This document shows positions 47,516 through 55,168 of a stretch of 64,000 bases of DNA, piece by piece. The stretch's first letter is position 1. Every line of letters starts with the position of its first letter. The position numbers and the translations under genes were made by a program. The stretch comes from Candidatus Thorarchaeota archaeon (GTDB taxonomy: Archaea > Asgardarchaeota > Thorarchaeia > Thorarchaeales > Thorarchaeaceae): contig JBHLQH010000017.1 in assembly GCA_048884965.1 (NCBI GenBank), positions 7,258 through 71,257 of the forward strand, written 5' to 3'. A model generated the notes under the pieces. The model was given only the letters and a program-made list of their open reading frames with translations. It did not search any database and was not told the DNA's origin.

Positions 47516-48874
47516 CTATTCCAGTATCTCCATTGCCTCAGAATCCTTTGGACCATTTCCAAAGGGTCCTTTTCCAATAGCAATCAAGATTATGAGATTC
47601 AGTAGGATGATTGTGAGGAAGAGAATTGGCGGAGTCATAAAAGTGTAGATGAGGCTTGCAATGATGGGTCCAATCGAAGATAGCACATACACAGTGACCC
47701 AGAAAATCGAGAGTATCTTTGATGTATCCGTCTTTGGCAGTCGCTTTCTAATCAAGATAATGATCAGAGTCCACCATAATGAATCGTTCACATATTTCAT
47801 AACAATCCCTATGAACGGAGTCGAAAAGATGATTCCTAACCCTGGAAGGACACTGTCCACGGATGACACCACTGAAGACGGTACAATATATGGAACTATT
47901 GGAGCGATTAAGAGGAAAGCTGCACTTACGGGCATGATGCTGTACACGACTACTGCTGCTCTCTTGACTCCTTTCCTATCACTGACCCGCCCTATTTTCA
48001 GCAGTAAGGGGAATGATATCGCCAATTGAGCCAGTAGGATTAGATTGATGCCTGCGATATCAACTGATAGCTCTTCATATGTATAGATGAGTGCTGCGAA
48101 ACCAAAGAACGAGTCACTCAGGGTATCAAGGATTACAATGAATATGAGCCCGGGGATCGCCACAAGTAGAAGCTTGGCTGCCCGGATGTTTTCAGACATA
48201 AACTCTGAGAGGATGGGCTTGTCCGAGCTCTTGTACTCGCGCTTAGGAGATTCTAACAAGACTGCTCGAATTGCTGAAGCAAGAATTAGACTGAGTCCGG
48301 TGATGAAATACATGAATCTGAATGCTACTGGAAATCCAAGAATTGGTTCAAGAAAGCCAAAGACAAGTAGTCCGGCGACACTGAACACCCTACCTGCTGT
48401 GAATAATGAAAGTGCAAATCCACTATGGTCTCTTGGTACATTTTCCATTATGTAGGAAGAAGACCCACTTCTAAATAGATCATGGACCGAGTATATCATT
48501 AATCCAATGAAAATCAGCCAGAAATCCACGAAAATACCCACATAGACGTAATATATTCCGAGGATAAGGTACGCTGCAACTGCAACACCTTTTCTATTTG
48601 CGATATCTCCTACATAACCTCCAATGAGTCTTGCTATACTACTAAAGGCATTGACAATGGATAGGACCAAACCGATAGTGATCAAGCTCCATCCCATCAC
48701 TTTGAGATAGAGATTGAGATATGATCCAAGGTGATTGTAGCAATTAAACATCCAGCCTGTGATAAGAAAGACCACATAATTCCTGTTGGAGAAAATTGAA
48801 TTCAACGAGCTTCGAACACCTTGGTCAACGGCTTCCTCCACAATAAGCAAGGGATTATCCTGAATATCTGACAT
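47516..48874 (-). CDS. MFS transporter
   Basis: About 12 TM; GGYVGDIANRK, GRVSDRKGVKR. Confidence 0.85.
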   Translation of the reverse strand: MSDIQDNPLLIVEEAVDQGVRSSLNSIFSNRNYVVFLITGWMFNCYNHLGSYLNLYLKVMGWSLITIGLVLSIVNAFSSIARLIGGYVGDIANRKGVAVAAYLILGIYYVYVGIFVDFWLIFIGLMIYSVHDLFRSGSSSYIMENVPRDHSGFALSLFTAGRVFSVAGLLVFGFLEPILGFPVAFRFMYFITGLSLILASAIRAVLLESPKREYKSSDKPILSEFMSENIRAAKLLLVAIPGLIFIVILDTLSDSFFGFAALIYTYEELSVDIAGINLILLAQLAISFPLLLKIGRVSDRKGVKRAAVVVYSIMPVSAAFLLIAPIVPYIVPSSVVSSVDSVLPGLGIIFSTPFIGIVMKYVNDSLWWTLIIILIRKRLPKTDTSKILSIFWVTVYVLSSIGPIIASLIYTFMTPPILFLTIILLNLIILIAIGKGPFGNGPKDSEAMEILE

Positions 48875-49051
48875 AGCTGTCTCCTGAGTTGCTCGATGTT
48901 TGTTGTTTTCTTCAGATAATGCCGTTTCTTGGAGGAGTTCTGTCAATCCATCACCCTGTAGTGCCTATATGGGATCTAGAAGCTAGCATCCTATAATAGC
49001 ACGTAAGAGATTCGGTATATAGACTCCTTTCTAAACTGGTGACGCTGGTAC

Positions 49052-49074
49052 TCTCGGGAGATGAAGTCCCGAGA
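49052..49074 (-). terminator. Hairpin downstream of the 83-aa gene
   Basis: TCTCGGGA...TCCCGAGA. Confidence 0.55.
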
Positions 49075-49105
49075 TACACACGCCATAATTCCTATTCTGG
49101 TCTTC

Positions 49106-49357
49106 TCAAACGTCAAATACCAACACACTGACATCACCATCTGAAGTTGGCATGGCGATCAATCGATGTGTGCAAATATCCGCAGATAGAACGATGCACT
49201 CAGGTGGTGTTGATGATCCTATCAAGTTCCGGACTGCTAGTTCCAAATTCAATGCAACCAGTCTGACTGTTTCCGGATCGTTGTATGGATCAACCTCTCG
49301 TCCTACTTCTGGACCTATGACGTTTGCGAATGTTGTTTCTAGTCCACTTCGTATCAT
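49106..49357 (-). CDS. 83-aa protein, possibly truncated Roadblock/LC7-like fold
   Basis: GGAGGT SD; helix DPETVRLVALNLELAVRNL followed by three strand-like segments. Confidence 0.7.
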   Translation of the reverse strand: MIRSGLETTFANVIGPEVGREVDPYNDPETVRLVALNLELAVRNLIGSSTPPECIVLSADICTHRLIAMPTSDGDVSVLVFDV

Positions 49358-49402
49358 TTTTCGTTGTTACCTCCTTTGCGGTTTTCAACCGCGGGATTAT
49401 TC

Positions 49403-49444
49403 TTAGAATGGTTCGTCTGATGGGTTTGCTGCGCCAGGGTTCAT
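49403..49444 (-). CDS. Micro-peptide MNPGAANPSDEPF (13 aa)
   Basis: AAGGAGGA SD just upstream of the ATG; C-terminal EPF shared with the neighbouring peptide. Confidence 0.5.
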   Translation of the reverse strand: MNPGAANPSDEPF

Positions 49445-49569
49445 TTTCTCTCTCCTCCTTTGAATTGAATCAAAGTTGATATGTCCTGCACCAAACCACC
49501 ATATTCTAAGAGGTGCTCCTGCAGCTATGGCCACTAGAAAGTCCTCTCATCTGCTCAGAACTAGAATAA

Positions 49570-49680
49570 CTAGAACGGCTCTGGACTTTCACAGGGTGGT
49601 TGTACTACAGACGAGAGACCATTTGATAACAATTCAAGAGAAACATGATTCTTAGTCATACTCTCTGCGATTGCTCTCAT
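49570..49680 (-). CDS. Micro-peptide MRAIAESMTKNHVSLELLSNGLSSVVQPPCESPEPF (36 aa, up to 44 aa from GTG 49704)
   Basis: GGAGGTGA upstream; ends in EPF. Confidence 0.45.
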   Translation of the reverse strand: MRAIAESMTKNHVSLELLSNGLSSVVQPPCESPEPF

Positions 49681-49806
49681 CCAATCTTTGTTAATCCCTT
49701 TCACCTCCGATATGGTTATTTGATATCTTTAAGATGGTGACACGGGTTCAGTTTTGACTGGATGATAGAATATCATCTATTTGTCAGAGTATTCTTAGTC
49801 ATACTC
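49648..49806. repeat. Exact 16-nt direct repeat ATTCTTAGTCATACTC (49648-49663, 49791-49806)
   Basis: Reads gagtATGACTAAGAAT (M-T-K-N) on the minus strand in both copies. Confidence 0.85.
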
Positions 49807-50025
49807 CTTTTTGAATCCTGTGACCAATCTCTATAGTAGAGTTTTCATTCGCCCCCATAATAATACGAACTGTTTTGGAAAAGCATCTTAAAAATGGCTT
49901 AAAATGAGAATCTAGACCATTTCTCAATACTATTTTTTGTATAGAGAACTCACTATTCCAAAGCAAGACATTTGATAGAAATATGGCTTAACTTTCGGAC
50001 AACTATATTAGCATAGAAATACTAT

Positions 50026-51111
50026 TTGAACTGGGGATGTTCCGTGGTAAATATTGGCTCAGGGATCGTTCGAATTCTCAATAGGTTGGCAATTGAACCT
50101 TCAGCAACTCAAGCACAGCTAGCGAAATATCTGTCCGTTTCACGATCCGCGATAAATCAACATTGGAATAACATGGAGTCCCAACATCACTTGCGAGTCC
50201 GGAGCAACTTGGATTATGGAGCTCTGGGATTTCAGTTTGTATTTGGTTGGTGTGTATCTGGAGATGAGGCGTCACTAGATCAATTTCAGAAGTGGTTGGT
50301 TCGAAATCCCTTTACTACCAGTATTCACAGGTCCTTGATGAGCTCAAGAATGGATTTCAGAGTCTTTTTCCAAGCAATAGTTCCCAATGGAAAGGCAATT
50401 CAAAGCTATCTTCAATCTATTGAACGATTTGAGAAAAGACCCTATTCCCTTAACGCATCATGCTATTCTGCATCAGCACTAGCCAATTATTTGAACTTCG
50501 GGTATTTTGATGGAATCGATTGGAGTTTCGACAGTGGATATAGGTTTGAGGCATCCATAGATGCTGCGAAAAGATATGCTTCGGTACTACCCGAGGTGAA
50601 AGCCATAGCTCAAACAAAGTATTCAGATTTTGATATAATTCCTAGTCTTATCGGGTCAGCTTTAGAGACTGACTATCATCATTCAGCAACCTCACTCATC
50701 GGTCTTTTTGACAAACATCACATTGACGCTCCATCAGAGCGGACTCTTCGTCGCAGATTATATGAGTATAGGAAGTCACTAGCACTAGCACACATCGATT
50801 TGGATAATATCGGCCTAACTAAGACAGTAATTATCACATTGGAAGACTCACAAGATCATGACAACTATAAATTGCTACAAGCTCAGTCAACAACCCTCCC
50901 AAAGGTCAGGGTTCTAACTAGTTCTGATTCTCTAGCATTGATACTTACTATCCCTCAGACCTCAGATTGGTTTCACCTGTCCAGTATCATGTCCAATGTG
51001 CTAGGTCCATCATCAAATATGTGTACATTTATAGCAGAGGAACTACCTTTTAGAAGATGGTTCGAGGATGTAATCAGTTACAGATTAGAACACCTTCGCC
51101 ATCTAGAGTAA
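50026..51111 (+). CDS. Divergent tandem Lrp/AsnC-like regulator
   Basis: TQAQLAKYLSVSRSAI...LDYGALG; second unit SERTLRRRL...LDNIGL. Confidence 0.75.
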   Translation: MNWGCSVVNIGSGIVRILNRLAIEPSATQAQLAKYLSVSRSAINQHWNNMESQHHLRVRSNLDYGALGFQFVFGWCVSGDEASLDQFQKWLVRNPFTTSIHRSLMSSRMDFRVFFQAIVPNGKAIQSYLQSIERFEKRPYSLNASCYSASALANYLNFGYFDGIDWSFDSGYRFEASIDAAKRYASVLPEVKAIAQTKYSDFDIIPSLIGSALETDYHHSATSLIGLFDKHHIDAPSERTLRRRLYEYRKSLALAHIDLDNIGLTKTVIITLEDSQDHDNYKLLQAQSTTLPKVRVLTSSDSLALILTIPQTSDWFHLSSIMSNVLGPSSNMCTFIAEELPFRRWFEDVISYRLEHLRHLE

Positions 51112-51166
51112 GATGAGAATTACCAAGAAAAGATACTATAGTATATATTAAGGGGACCATGCTAAG

Positions 51167-52594
51167 TTGGAATCAACATTGAACATTTTGGCTCGTATTC
51201 AAACGCCATTCGATGATGAAATCCCTAAAGTTGAGGAACCGTCTGCTAGGTTTTACGTCGATGCAATGAGGATATACCTGGCATTGAGCAGTGGAACAAT
51301 CAGCTTTGACGAAGGAATTGAAGCTGCAGAAGCTCTCAAGAAAAATCCCGAGTATGCAAGGTCTCCAACCAATCCAACACAAGTTCCAATCAATCAGCAT
51401 TACACAAACAAGATTCTTGAGAACCTGAAAATTCTGAAGAAGTTCAATCTCTTCACTCGCGATTCTATAAGATCCGCATACAGTTTCGTCTTCATCTCAG
51501 AAGAAGCCTCAATCAACAATATTGATTTTCGAGTGCTGCAAGGTATAGTAGAGACTCCAAGAGCATCGATATCCTCTCTTGCCATAAATCTGGGAATATC
51601 TCCTAGAACTGTGTCCAGATCCTTTGAGCGATTAAAAGAAAGGCACCTATTGAGAAATCGTGCATACCTTGACAACACTCCATGGGGAATTAATACGAGT
51701 CTAGTCTTCTTTACCCCTCGTAAGGATATAGATTGGCCTCGAGTGGAAGAGGCATTGATGACATTTCCCTATCTTAAAACAATTCTCAAAACATCTGTAA
51801 GTGATTTAGGATATCTCTCATTTATTGTTCCAGGGTACAAGGAAAATTACACTTCACTTCATAATAGTATCAAGAAATTATCCAAAACCATTTTCGATTA
51901 TGTGAGCATACACACTCAGGATATCGTAGGTGCTGATAGAAATCTGTCGTTGTATCAAAATGGAATATGGAAATTCCCTGATGCTGCCAAGTTGCTATTC
52001 GAGAATGAGGATCTACCTAATCCTGAAACTACTCCTAGAATCTTGACCTGCAGCGAGGATGTTTCTAGCTTCAGGGAGATTGACTATAAGATAGCATTGG
52101 CTGTAAAGCAATCATCAAGGGCATCACCAAGCGAAATTGCTAGAAACCTCCTCAGGAAAGGCATCGATGTAGATCCAAAGCAAATCTCTACAGTAGTGAG
52201 AAAACTGTATGATAGATCTATAGTTCTTCCATACACAGTTTTTGCCTTGGGACTTACATCTGACTTCTGTTTTGAGATAGTATGTAACGAGTTTTGGAAA
52301 CAGCGCATTATGTCTGTTCTTCCTCTTCTACCTTACACAATGTCCTATTTCTCGCCAAATGGTGTCATCATCTGGGCTGCTTCTCCAGGGGTTCAACAGG
52401 TCGAATACTATCAGCTATTCAGACTTCTAGAAGAACACTCAGGTGTGAAATCGGTTCGATCGCTAATGACCATCAACATGAAAGGCTCAAGGGTGATAGA
52501 CGATTTCGTTGAATCTTGGAGATATACACGCAATGGATATTCAGTACCCTCAGAGGAGTTTAATCTCTCAGAATATCTACCAGATGACCTCTAA
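51167..52594 (+). CDS. Divergent tandem Lrp/AsnC-like regulator with extra N-terminal domain
   Basis: IDFRVL.....PRASISSLA.NLGISPRTV...ERL; second unit IDYKI......SRAS.SEIA. Confidence 0.78.
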   Translation: MESTLNILARIQTPFDDEIPKVEEPSARFYVDAMRIYLALSSGTISFDEGIEAAEALKKNPEYARSPTNPTQVPINQHYTNKILENLKILKKFNLFTRDSIRSAYSFVFISEEASINNIDFRVLQGIVETPRASISSLAINLGISPRTVSRSFERLKERHLLRNRAYLDNTPWGINTSLVFFTPRKDIDWPRVEEALMTFPYLKTILKTSVSDLGYLSFIVPGYKENYTSLHNSIKKLSKTIFDYVSIHTQDIVGADRNLSLYQNGIWKFPDAAKLLFENEDLPNPETTPRILTCSEDVSSFREIDYKIALAVKQSSRASPSEIARNLLRKGIDVDPKQISTVVRKLYDRSIVLPYTVFALGLTSDFCFEIVCNEFWKQRIMSVLPLLPYTMSYFSPNGVIIWAASPGVQQVEYYQLFRLLEEHSGVKSVRSLMTINMKGSRVIDDFVESWRYTRNGYSVPSEEFNLSEYLPDDL

Positions 52595-52606: not shown

Positions 52607-53515
52607 CTAAATTGCTTGTAGACCTTTTACCAGCAATTGCATAGATTTTTTGTTATGACTCAATGGTGGTCCAAACACTATGTGATTCACGCCATGAACT
52701 TCAAGAAGGGACATGTAGTCTTTTATTCCCTCAAAGGATGTAAAAAGCCCCCAACGAGTCAGAGATTTCTCTCCTATTGCTGCTACGACCTCCTCATTCA
52801 CTTTTCCATTCATCGCATGAAGTTCCCTAGCTCTTAGCACTGAATCCTCTAAGCCAAACTCCTGAAGAAGTGCCTTTGGTGCGCCAATTGCGACTACAGC
52901 GGTAGTGTAATTGAACTCACTCGATGTTTCTTGATTTGGGCTATCTACAATCTCAGTCGGTACAAATACGCCAAACGTGAAATCTTCGTGATGGGGCTCA
53001 ATGATATCCTGCGCCCATTTGATCATTTCAGGTTCAGATAGATTGAGAAGCACTCCATCAAGTGTTGAAGATTCTTTTATCATACGAGGTCCTTGAGCTC
53101 CTAGCATGACCGCACAACCGAGGTCACGTTCCTTTACCATCTGCTTGATATCAGATGCAACCTTAATGGTGTGCTCCATGACCCGTTTTGGAACCCATGT
53201 TCTTTGTCCAATCCGTACGAGTGCCATTTTGTCTCCCGGTCCGATGAGTAAATCGAATCGCGGACCGAACTCCTCTACGAGTGTATCAAGCCACCTAATC
53301 ACATAATCACAATCATAGATCATTGATGAGATAAGCCCAAGTCCAATACGACAGTTGATTGTCGATGCAAGTTTGAGTGCCACTGTGGGTGCGAATCTAG
53401 GGGCTGGAAAATCGACAACCCAAATCTCATCAAAATGAGCATTGTCGAAAAAGGTTGCAATCTCGAGCGTGTTACTAAAGGATTCGTAGACATTTAGCGC
53501 AGCTGCTAATTTCAC
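52607..53515 (-). CDS. LLM-class (Mer-like) oxidoreductase, divergent
   Basis: IGPGD, LGAQGPRM, DGVLLN, IVFGPPL. Confidence 0.8.
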   Translation of the reverse strand: MKLAAALNVYESFSNTLEIATFFDNAHFDEIWVVDFPAPRFAPTVALKLASTINCRIGLGLISSMIYDCDYVIRWLDTLVEEFGPRFDLLIGPGDKMALVRIGQRTWVPKRVMEHTIKVASDIKQMVKERDLGCAVMLGAQGPRMIKESSTLDGVLLNLSEPEMIKWAQDIIEPHHEDFTFGVFVPTEIVDSPNQETSSEFNYTTAVVAIGAPKALLQEFGLEDSVLRARELHAMNGKVNEEVVAAIGEKSLTRWGLFTSFEGIKDYMSLLEVHGVNHIVFGPPLSHNKKSMQLLVKGLQAI

Positions 53516-54537
53516 ATCTGTGTTCTCCTAATCTGTATTTCATTGAAAATGTCCTGCATCGCACCTCGCCAGTCTCCAGAGAATGGAGGTCCCAAAACCA
53601 CTTCCGTGATTCCTACGGATGCAACCTGCTCGAACATGTCTACCATGTGTGTTAGGGTCCCAGCAATGGCAAAAGTATCCATAATATCGTCATCAATCAG
53701 GTTTGACCCTACATCAGGTCCTTCTGATGCAACTACTTCTCTAATTTTGTCGATTCTCTCTTTGTCCACAGCCAACATATCGATGATACTTACTGGCATA
53801 TCTGCGACCACAATTGCTACAACCTTTTTGGCTAACTTTTCTTTGCCCCCTTTGAATGTTGGAATTGTTGGTAGCCACGCGATTTTTTCTACATCATTTG
53901 ACTTGCGACCTGATTTCAGGGCGGCTTCATTAATCTCTTTGACCGCATATCTAAGATATTCAATAGGCCCTGAAAGAATCGCACCATCCGCTTCTTCTCC
54001 TACGAGTTTGAGCATTTGAGGTCCTCTGACCCCAAGAAAAACAGGAATTCTTGTATCCGCTGTTCTCAATTCATACTCATCAAGCTCGAACAGCTCATTC
54101 TTGACAGTGATCTTCCTTCCCTCCCAAAGAGATCGCAAACATTTCACAGTCTGACGCAATAGAGTGACTGGTTTCTTCAATTCAATTCCTAGCTTCTTCA
54201 AATCTTGAATTCCACCAATGCCTGTGCCAAAAACAAAACGACCGCTACCGATCTCTTGTAAACTAAGCGCCGCTCTTGCTAAGGTAGTGATATTATGAAC
54301 GCTGATAGGAACTATTCCAGTTCCTACTCTCGTTTTTTGGGTATGCATCAGTGAAGCAGCTGATAGTATGAATGGGTCTTGACCAATACCGATATCCTCC
54401 CCAATCCAGATAGAGTGCACTCCCATTGAATCAGCGTTTTCTGCAATCCATTTGGTTGCTTGGACTTTCATATTAGTAGTTATGCCGACACTTGCATGAT
54501 ACAACATTCTATCCCTGAATGTGATTGCTATTCGCAC
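53512..54537 (-). CDS. LLM-class (Mer-like, probably F420-dependent) oxidoreductase
   Basis: IWIGED, VGTGI, GRFVFGTGIG, GVRGPQML...GE.ADG, VVLGPP. Confidence 0.85.
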   Translation of the reverse strand: MRIAITFRDRMLYHASVGITTNMKVQATKWIAENADSMGVHSIWIGEDIGIGQDPFILSAASLMHTQKTRVGTGIVPISVHNITTLARAALSLQEIGSGRFVFGTGIGGIQDLKKLGIELKKPVTLLRQTVKCLRSLWEGRKITVKNELFELDEYELRTADTRIPVFLGVRGPQMLKLVGEEADGAILSGPIEYLRYAVKEINEAALKSGRKSNDVEKIAWLPTIPTFKGGKEKLAKKVVAIVVADMPVSIIDMLAVDKERIDKIREVVASEGPDVGSNLIDDDIMDTFAIAGTLTHMVDMFEQVASVGITEVVLGPPFSGDWRGAMQDIFNEIQIRRTQM

Positions 54538-54613
54538 TAAAGAATGATTTCACATGTAACGAAGATAATGACTAGATATTTGTACAACCAGTCATGATAG
54601 AGCATGAACTAAT

Positions 54614-55168
54614 TTGAAGCGAATACTTTGGGGTATCACTGGGTCTGGAGATAGGATTGATGAGATTGTTGGCATTATGGATCAAGTCAATGCGATGGAG
54701 GGCATCAAGCTCAATATCATCATTTCTAAAGCCGGAGAGCAGATGCTAAGGCGCTATTCTCTTTGGGAGAAGATAGAGTCCTCGTTTCGAAAAGTAACTC
54801 GGGAAGTGAATTCCAACGTCCCTTTTGTAGCTGGGCCTTTACAAGTCGGTCACTATGCACTTCTTGTGGTCGCGCCTCTGACAGCTAACTCCACAGCTAA
54901 AATCGCTCTTGGCATAGCTGACACTCTAGTTACAAATGCTGTAGCGCAAACCCTCAAGGGAAACACTCCTGTCCTTCTCTACCCTGTCGATCAAAATCCC
55001 GGAACAGTGGAAACTACTGCCCCCGACGGAATGCAGTACACCATCCGAACTCGCGAAGTAGACTTGCGTAATGCAGAGATGCTACGACAAATGGAAGGAG
55101 TCACAGTCGTGCCATCTCCTGAGCATATCTTTCCTGCAATCAAGAGAATTATCAAAGTTGATGGATGA
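54614..55168 (+). CDS. afpA: Archaeal flavoprotein AfpA family
   Basis: WGITGSG, SKAGE, PLTANSTAKIA.GIADTLVTNAVAQ, PVD. Confidence 0.85.
   Translation: MKRILWGITGSGDRIDEIVGIMDQVNAMEGIKLNIIISKAGEQMLRRYSLWEKIESSFRKVTREVNSNVPFVAGPLQVGHYALLVVAPLTANSTAKIALGIADTLVTNAVAQTLKGNTPVLLYPVDQNPGTVETTAPDGMQYTIRTREVDLRNAEMLRQMEGVTVVPSPEHIFPAIKRIIKVDG

Follow-up and report, generated by a model that had tools for sequence, protein, structure and literature searches.

Two conserved Shine-Dalgarno-led micro-genes with a common proline-aromatic ending beside the orphan gene p83 in Thorarchaeota

The upstream conserved coding region (uCC) of eukaryotic AZIN1 and ODC is a short conserved open reading frame (ORF) with an AUU start, a proline-rich end and an aromatic residue before the stop, and is read through eIF5A and polyamines; on the upstream ORF (uORF) of AZIN1, which starts at AUU and ends in PPW-stop, ribosomes stall at high polyamine (PMC9082881). 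In E. coli, mdtU is a C-terminally conserved uORF controlling a spermidine exporter, and MdtU, SpeFL and TnaC represent a type in which such a uORF lies in cis before a transporter or metabolic operon, with RNA structure before the downstream ribosome-binding site (PMC7815308). Here we describe a cassette that resembles both in part, consisting of the very small genes mo44 and mo13 and the orphan gene p83. It is located in a 64,000-nucleotide (nt) stretch of a Candidatus Thorarchaeota genome (GenBank assembly GCA_048884965.1, contig JBHLQH010000017.1, positions 7,258 to 71,257 of the forward strand), the whole of which we call the window. The cassette would work as a peptide-partner module or as a sensory uORF, kinds that are both known in bacteria and eukaryotes.

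Three other systems share parts of this arrangement. In the Rgg/SHP and RRNPP systems an unmodified micro-peptide gene lies beside, and often divergent from, that of a cytoplasmic regulator, and the active part of the peptide is C-terminal. In microcin C clusters (mccA-mccB-mccC) the C-terminal residue encoded by a micro-ORF is fixed, a hairpin follows this ORF, and one of the genes encodes an MFS exporter. By analogy only, the C-terminal tip of bacterial SSB is also comparable: its docking tail consists of an acidic run, a Pro and the C-terminal Phe, and docks by placing its free carboxylate and its aromatic ring in a pocket of the partner; unlike in SSB, there is no OB-fold protein at this locus. 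The cassette fits no described family: its regulators do not have the RRNPP fold, there is no enzyme as in ribosomally synthesized and post-translationally modified peptide (RiPP) loci, and there is no MccB as in microcin C. Literature searches found no description of the cassette, or of anything similar, in Asgard archaea.

The initial annotation of this region had noticed that an apparently empty interval holds minus-strand short ORFs led by Shine-Dalgarno (SD) sequences, two of them ending in E-P-F with different codons. Both observations were confirmed, and every feature that it listed was found at its position. Within 49,106-49,708 the minus-strand gene order is mo44, mo13, p83, as follows:

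49702..49708, minus strand: SD sequence of mo44, GGAGGTG
49570..49695, minus strand: mo44, a 41-codon small-protein gene with a predicted AUU start at 49693-49695 and a TAG stop at 49570-49572
49570-49704, minus strand: open frame of mo44 as first called, with the end GAG CCG TTC TAG
49446..49460, minus strand: purine-rich SD sequence of mo13, AGGAGGAGAGAG
49403..49444, minus strand: mo13, a 13-codon micro-gene rich in Pro and Asp/Glu, with the end GAA CCA TTC TAA (E-P-F-stop)
49106..49357, minus strand: p83, an SD-led orphan gene of 83 amino acids (aa)

The two micro-genes, mo44 with 41-44 codons and mo13 with 13, are about 125 nt apart in the window, where the mo44 tail reads Q-P-P-C-E-S-P-E-P-F-stop and the mo13 end reads S-D-E-P-F-stop. 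The tight unit is probably the tricistronic mo44-mo13-p83, divergent from two Lrp/AsnC-like regulators, reg361 and reg475; we infer that the three genes are co-transcribed.

Orthologous loci were retrieved from 20 genomes of the same GTDB family with reg475 as the handle, and the region upstream of p83 was retrieved from 40 more genomes; counts for mo13 refer to the 51 loci with enough sequence. The order endonuclease III, MFS transporter, p83, mo44, and then the divergent reg361 and reg475 and an LLM oxidoreductase gene was recovered by tblastn in 19 of the 20 loci, and the single exception stops at a contig edge. Conservation of the micro-ORFs and of their ending next to orthologous regulators was the comparison on which the initial annotation had staked its proposal; both are kept beside the regulator pair in 19/20 pair-carrying loci, and the micro-ORFs also in a further ~35 loci retrieved around p83.

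An SD-led ORF of the mo13 type, ending in P-[FWY]-stop and lying 31-61 nt before the p83 start, was present in all 51 loci. Every one of these has the SD sequence, and the start codon is ATG in 49 and GTG in 2. Peptide length is 11-15 aa in 47 loci and 23-24 aa in the other 4, with a median of 13 aa. The Pro at position -2 is encoded by all four of its codons (CCA 32, CCT 12, CCC 4, CCG 3) and the last codon is always aromatic (TGG 32, TTC 17, TAC/TAT 2), with exchange of F and W at the terminus between close relatives. Position -4 is Pro in 37/51 and position -3 is Glu or Asp in 35/51; Cys is enriched near the C-terminus, standing at -5 in 4/51. Conservation is mainly confined to the last 2-5 codons before the stop, and the N-terminus is variable. 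Without Met1, the peptides consist of 28% Pro, 11% Asp and 10% Glu, and consecutive prolines are missing from most of them.

As a chance baseline, we counted SD-led ATG ORFs of 8-30 aa across the whole 4.09 Mb genome: 11 of 2943 end in P-[FWY], against 11.2 expected. Within that set mo13 is the sole ORF ending in [DE]-P-[FWY] or P-x-P-[FWY], and no genome-wide class of similar uORFs was found in this genome. The P-[FWY] ending of mo13 at p83 is far beyond chance.

A second, near-identical SD-led copy of mo13 lies 160-230 nt upstream of p83 in six genomes from two genera. These tandem duplications occur at loci L020, L049, L055 and L065 of one genus and L079 and L080 of another. Copies inside one genome are more alike than copies from different genomes, a pattern that suggests concerted evolution. 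A third genus (e.g. L061, L067, L070, L082) has in-frame remnants of additional mo13 copies.

Homologues of mo44 were found by tblastn in 19/20 syntenic loci and were aligned over their full length. The invariant positions include Arg, Glu, Leu, Val, Pro and Cys, and the consensus of the tail is V-V-Q-P-P-C-E-D-P-x-P-F. With synonymous divergence close to saturation (pS ~0.73), pairwise pN/pS was 0.16 for the 12 codons of the tail and 0.33-0.38 for the N-terminal block, taken as 22 codons or as the first 10, and entropy at third codon positions was two to five times that at positions 1 and 2. These values point to strong purifying selection on mo44. In its AlphaFold2 (AF2) model, residues 5-32 are helical and the tail is extended. 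Both mo44 and mo13 are strongly acidic, with neither a signal sequence nor a hydrophobic segment. Judged by their sequence evolution, both ORFs are genuine genes, translated and under selection for the peptide sequence.

The start codon of mo44 appears to be unusual. The GGAGGTG sequence is present in 47/50 loci, and in all 47 an in-frame ATT, ATC or ATA follows GGAGG, at 8-9 nt in 46 loci and at 10 nt in one. In eight loci the GTG of the SD sequence is either out of frame or cut off from the Ile codon by a stop codon; in eleven, no ATG, GTG or TTG occurs from the SD sequence up to the conserved Glu13; and six loci combine a blocked or out-of-frame GTG with the lack of any ATG, GTG or TTG before Glu13. 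In one locus the codon for Met15 is replaced by CTG. Selection at the protein level is seen over the ten codons that begin with the Ile. Because of the SD spacing, the blocked GTG, the lack of a canonical start in some loci and the selection from the Ile on, the most simply supported start of mo44 would be the conserved AUU, AUC or AUA (AUH) codon. A family-wide non-AUG start of this kind is rare for archaea.

The initial annotation had spoken of an array of micro-peptides. Two genes of this array stand, mo44 and mo13, and its third short ORF (9 codons, ~49775-49804) shows no conservation in relatives. An exact 15-nt direct repeat, AGTATGACTAAGAAT on the minus strand, occurs at 49648-49662 and 49791-49805, once within mo44 (encoding E-S-M-T-K-N) and once in its 5' leader. 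The leader copy generates a non-conserved 9-codon ORF, and the repeat was not seen in relatives. Also in the leader, at 49761-49777, lies the perfect inverted repeat GATGATA-GAA-TATCATC, which could be a leader hairpin or an operator; relatives have other palindromes at a similar place.

The distribution of p83 is restricted to the family. A p83 profile found it as a single copy in 56/59 family genomes, spanning 16 genera, and in 0/191 other Asgard genomes; reg475 orthologues were present in 24/24 family genomes. An exhaustive hidden Markov model search of 1.84 billion representatives with the p83 profile returned just 8, all close kin. For mo44, 33 matching database proteins were found, all of Thorarchaeota type, and the database homologues of p83 and mo44, where named, are from Candidatus Thorarchaeota. 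A search for longer or fused forms of mo44 gave merely over-extended ORF calls and one in-frame internal duplication. The latter, protein P0081 of a Thorarchaeota metagenome-assembled genome, repeats most of mo44 within 87 aa and may be real or an assembly artefact. Neither p83 nor mo44 matched Pfam or NCBIfam, even at E 10, and an ESM Atlas feature search with p83 gave no usable match. We treat p83 as an orphan protein.

In the confident p83 model (pLDDT 82) the N-terminus is disordered, and there are one helix and a sheet of three strands; the conserved residues are Cys54, Cys62 and His64. Fold searches returned weak, mixed matches to roadblock/longin, PAS, pilin and MbnC structures (Foldseek E >= 0.086, Z <= 6.0, TM ~0.5). 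Roadblock/LC7-longin proteins have a five-stranded alpha-beta-alpha fold, and their resemblance to p83, with its single helix and only three strands, was weak (TM ~0.5, Z 4.2-4.5); that of the leader-binding protein MbnC was also weak (Z 4.9). We considered a split roadblock domain, with alpha-beta-beta from mo44 and alpha-beta-beta-beta from p83, and dropped it: the mo44 of the window lacks four residues of the supposed strand, AF2 gives a single long helix for mo44, and a comparison of p83 with the 12 roadblock proteins of the genome by hhalign gave a probability of 0.4%. Co-folding of p83 with mo44, entered as alignments, scored 0.00 in a run made without controls, and counts neither for nor against binding.

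Our leading reading, which we hold tentatively, is that mo44 and mo13 work in trans as peptides with a common docking tail at the C-terminus. In favor of this, mo44 is conserved from end to end and has a Cys that never changes, mo13 keeps its Pro at -2 and its aromatic last residue in all 51 loci, the same ending occurs twice, and second mo13 copies have been retained. A uORF kept for the mere act of translation would not preserve the 28-residue helix and the Cys of mo44, and the near-identical second copies of mo13 in six genomes fit the dosage of a product. Under this reading mo44 would be the low-level product of an AUU-type start, a helical micro-protein with the exposed tail V-V-Q-P-P-C-E-D-P-x-P-F-COOH, and mo13, made from a strong SD sequence and an ATG, would in essence be the same tail in free form, with acidic X-Pro repeats and P-[FWY]-COOH at its end. 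Since two otherwise unrelated peptides of one operon end alike, the ending would have one reader: the common proline-aromatic carboxy-terminus may be the docking determinant for one shared partner, and mo13 may act as a competitor of the mo44 tail or reinforce it. The genes p83, mo13 and mo44 travel together; because of this constant co-occurrence and its conserved Cys/Cys/His, p83 would be the prime candidate partner, with the MFS transporter or the regulators as alternatives, and these residues could pair with the invariant Cys of mo44. Termination-reinitiation coupling is nearly abolished at ~20 nt in Haloferax (PMC10666635). Such coupling between mo13 and p83 is unlikely, because the 31-61 nt gap is too long and p83 also has a strong SD sequence of its own.

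Several points weigh against an action in trans. The docking tail and the identity of its partner are predictions, and the fold searches with p83 gave no known peptide-binding fold, only weak resemblances with Z <= 6. In three divergent genomes (G093, G010, G019) mo13 and p83 are kept and mo44 is absent or has an altered end, suggesting that the tails are not strictly co-dependent; two of the three retain a Q-P-(P)-C-(E/S) core. The pattern of mo13, with a variable N-terminus and fixed residues just before the stop, is also the signature of an arrest peptide. The peptides have no export signal, and we know of no archaeal precedent.

The other explanations involve the surroundings of the cassette, whose features are:

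49378..49392, minus strand: small 6-bp hairpin GCGGTT/AACCGC between the mo13 stop and the p83 SD sequence
49052..49074, minus strand: strong GC-rich hairpin 3' of the p83 stop
49014..49032, minus strand: TATA-like box GAGTCTA(A/T)ATA(C), likely the MFS gene's own promoter
47516..48874, minus strand: MFS transporter gene, Pfam MFS_1
49856..49863, minus strand: TTATTATG, TATA-like candidate promoter of the mo44 operon, its direction and function being predicted
49987..50002, minus strand: candidate regulatory box (operator or promoter) TTG(T/G)CC..A.GTT(T/A)AG, adjoining the start of reg361
50026..51111, plus strand: reg361, a tandem winged helix-turn-helix (wHTH) plus effector regulator of 361 aa
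51167..52594, plus strand: reg475, a paralogous regulator with two wHTH units, 475 aa

The initial annotation had placed after the micro-ORFs a hairpin, an SD-led 83-aa gene, a second hairpin and a co-oriented MFS gene, and all four were recovered. A hairpin between mo13 and p83 (minimum free energy (MFE) <= -5) occurs in 33/51 loci and is missing in several genera. It begins 9-19 nt past the mo13 stop, and its stems differ in sequence by compensatory change; at some loci a portion of the p83 SD sequence is paired within it. The spacer is purine-rich, with no T-tract terminator, and the strong SD sequence of p83 is mostly unpaired. The hairpin 3' of p83 is strong and occurs widely, with a median MFE of -25.9 and a median z of -2.7 (90 nt past the stop, 16 loci). 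An Rfam scan of 48800-50200 gave only a sub-threshold chance match (caiA, 23 bits against a threshold of 55.5).

Past the p83 hairpin, the box GAGTCTA(A/T)ATA(C) is at the same place in most genera and is likely a TATA-like element of the MFS gene; GAGTCTAAATAC is probably a candidate promoter element of a separate MFS transcript. The strong hairpin and the TATA-like box separate the MFS gene from p83, and because of this a coupling of the cassette to export through the transporter is not supported. The MFS gene itself is clear from its MFS_1 profile match (E 3.8e-29, 102 bits) and is syntenic in related loci; it could be assigned to no subfamily and has no PDB relative by sequence. Its start is likely the SD-led ATG at 48872-48874 and not the TTG at 48946. 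It is tied to the mo44-mo13-p83 unit by adjacency only and probably has its own promoter. On the other side, TTATTATG lies 162-197 nt upstream of the mo44 SD sequence in 13/18 aligned intergenic regions, and in the intergenic alignment the box beside reg361 is conserved across genera.

That two divergent, duplicated regulators with wHTH and effector-type domains face the peptide genes, as the initial annotation had it, was borne out, and structurally they are closest to tandem Lrp/AsnC proteins. By Pfam, reg475 matched HTH_24 (E 3.6e-8, above cut-off), the HTH_AsnC-type score of the regulators was 25.1 bits against a cut-off of 27, and the RAM effector domain PF01037 was not detected. The Atlas model of reg361 was closest to tandem Lrp/AsnC-type proteins (TM 0.66-0.83), and for reg475 an AsnC-family protein in the PDB was a weak match that covers the HTH and some of the RAM. 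On these models the label Lrp-like is reasonable for both, the Pfam result for RAM notwithstanding, and the regulators probably control the mo44-mo13-p83 unit. The start of reg361 is possibly a GTG at 50044 rather than 50026, and its Atlas record begins there. A 482-aa paralogue of reg475 (26% identity) is encoded elsewhere in the genome (G000, contig C8:122564-124012), among genes with hydrophobic signal-like N-termini; neither micro-ORFs nor p83 were found at that locus. Atlas clusters suggest that the tandem-wHTH family is greatly expanded in Thorarchaeota.

The left flank past p83 consists of the hairpin, the MFS gene and then endonuclease III, and the flanking genes of the conserved block encode endonuclease III, SerRS, Mer-like LLMs and AfpA. 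In the window, 52607-55168 holds two Mer-like F420-dependent LLM oxidoreductases and the archaeoflavoprotein AfpA (above the NCBIfam cut-off), convergent with the regulators; the first LLM gene to the right of them is syntenic in most relatives. This block looks like tetrahydromethanopterin (H4MPT) metabolism and not like peptide tailoring, in line with the earlier remark that no RiPP-modifying enzyme is adjacent.

A strong rival, in our view somewhat less likely than action in trans, is that the micro-ORFs are translational sensors in cis: their Pro/Asp-rich sequence with its P-[FWY]-stop end would make ribosomes pause, in elongation or at termination, under the influence of aIF5A activity or of a small molecule, for instance a polyamine. 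The paused ribosome would set the expression of p83, and perhaps of the MFS gene, by remodelling the hairpin and the SD region downstream. As an arrest uORF would, mo13 lies in cis upstream of p83 in 51/51 loci, always 31-61 nt away, and its conservation is C-terminal, in the last 2-5 codons with a variable N-terminus. Its content of 28% Pro and 21% Asp plus Glu resembles eIF5A-dependent pause sites; yeast needs eIF5A both at D-x-x motifs that contain Pro or Gly and for termination (PMC5499558). The AUH start of mo44 and its Q-P-P...P-x-P-F-stop ending recall the AZIN1 uORF, the mdtU uORF of E. coli provides a precedent (PMC7815308), and the mo13 motif is unique in the genome. The hairpin 9-19 nt past the stop, found in 33/51 loci and partly paired with the p83 SD sequence in several, would supply the RNA structure; it is absent in about a third of loci, however, and the strong SD sequence of p83 is mostly unpaired. 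Stalling leaves the full-length conservation of mo44, its helix and its Cys unexplained, and the upstream copies of mo13, at 160-230 nt from p83, are too far away to affect the p83 SD sequence. Most mo13 peptides are without consecutive prolines, and no polyamine gene was found in the flanks searched.

The comparison with the uCC is limited in further ways. The uCC uses scanning and queuing, whereas the cassette is SD-led; ribosome queuing on a weak start requires scanning, and SD-led initiation proceeds without it. Its mo44 is conserved over the full length, most of its mo13 peptides have no prolines in a row, and what lies downstream is the gene of the 83-aa orphan p83 and not of a polyamine enzyme. 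MdtU, SpeFL and TnaC differ in that archaea have no Rho, the motif is another one, two uORF-like genes with the same ending are present here, and the hairpin is not universal. The more specific proposal, that the cassette is an archaeal nascent-peptide sensor with the logic of the eukaryotic polyamine-responsive uCC, reading aIF5A or polyamine status for p83 and the transporter, seems unlikely to us. If true, archaea would have their first regulator of the arrest-peptide type, and this in the lineage nearest to eukaryotes.

The proposal of the initial annotation, overlapping with the action in trans, was that the peptides, exported through the MFS protein or accumulated in the cell, are ligands of the Lrp-like regulators in a loop like that of Rgg/SHP or RRNPP. 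The peptide genes are divergent from the regulators in 19/20 loci, the effector-type domains of these regulators are of the kind found in Lrp/AsnC proteins, a neighbouring gene encodes an exporter, and some genera have two copies of mo13. Nevertheless, we consider such a loop quite improbable. Lrp-type RAM pockets bind free amino acids, and to our knowledge no peptide ligand of such a pocket has been described. The peptides are strongly acidic, where those of Rgg/SHP-RRNPP systems are hydrophobic, and have neither a signal sequence nor a hydrophobic segment; the regulators are tandem Lrp-like wHTH proteins and not TPR proteins; and no PptAB, Eep or Opp partner is found at the locus or in the conserved block. 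In contrast to co-diversifying pheromone-receptor pairs, the motif is constant across 16 genera, without lineage diversification, and swaps F and W in close relatives. The MFS gene is apparently separately promoted, and the reg475 paralogue elsewhere in the genome is without micro-ORFs. Overall, the interpretation first given to this locus is partly supported; a translational sensor in cis would explain these observations about equally well.

A RiPP, cofactor or metallophore precursor or scaffold, with mo44 as leader plus core, p83 as recognition protein or chaperone, the MFS protein as exporter and the enzymes elsewhere, is very unlikely. The helix-plus-core layout and invariant Cys of mo44, the Cys at mo13 position -5 in 4/51 loci and the weak match of the p83 model to MbnC (Z 4.9) would agree with it, and the succession of micro-ORF, hairpin, small gene and MFS gene is reminiscent of microcin C operons. 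Yet no radical-SAM, YcaO, LanB/C, ThiF-like or DUF692 enzyme was detected in the conserved block (Pfam and NCBIfam, flanking genes), mo13 has no leader, and the variable terminal F, W or Y argues against one defined product. Compared with microcin C, there is no MccB-type adenylyltransferase, the terminal residue is aromatic and not Asn, and the host is an archaeon. Finally, chance open frames in a regulatory intergenic region, which only the small size of the ORFs would favor, are refuted by the comparative data, that is, by the 51/51 conservation, the codon-level purifying selection and the SD sequence in every locus.

Annotation almost always misses functional genes of 11-15 codons, and very few of those in archaea are understood. 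Thorarchaeota have here a family-wide, single-copy cassette with a sequence rule, an SD sequence, ~13 codons and P-[FWY]-stop, accompanied by mo44 and the orphan p83. Two of its features are new and open to testing, the predicted AUH start, which is conserved, and the rule of P-[FWY]-stop; this rule is simple enough for testing though the host is uncultured. If true, either of the leading readings would be a first for archaea: a docking or signalling module based on peptide tails, or a uCC-like translational sensor that acts through the nascent peptide.

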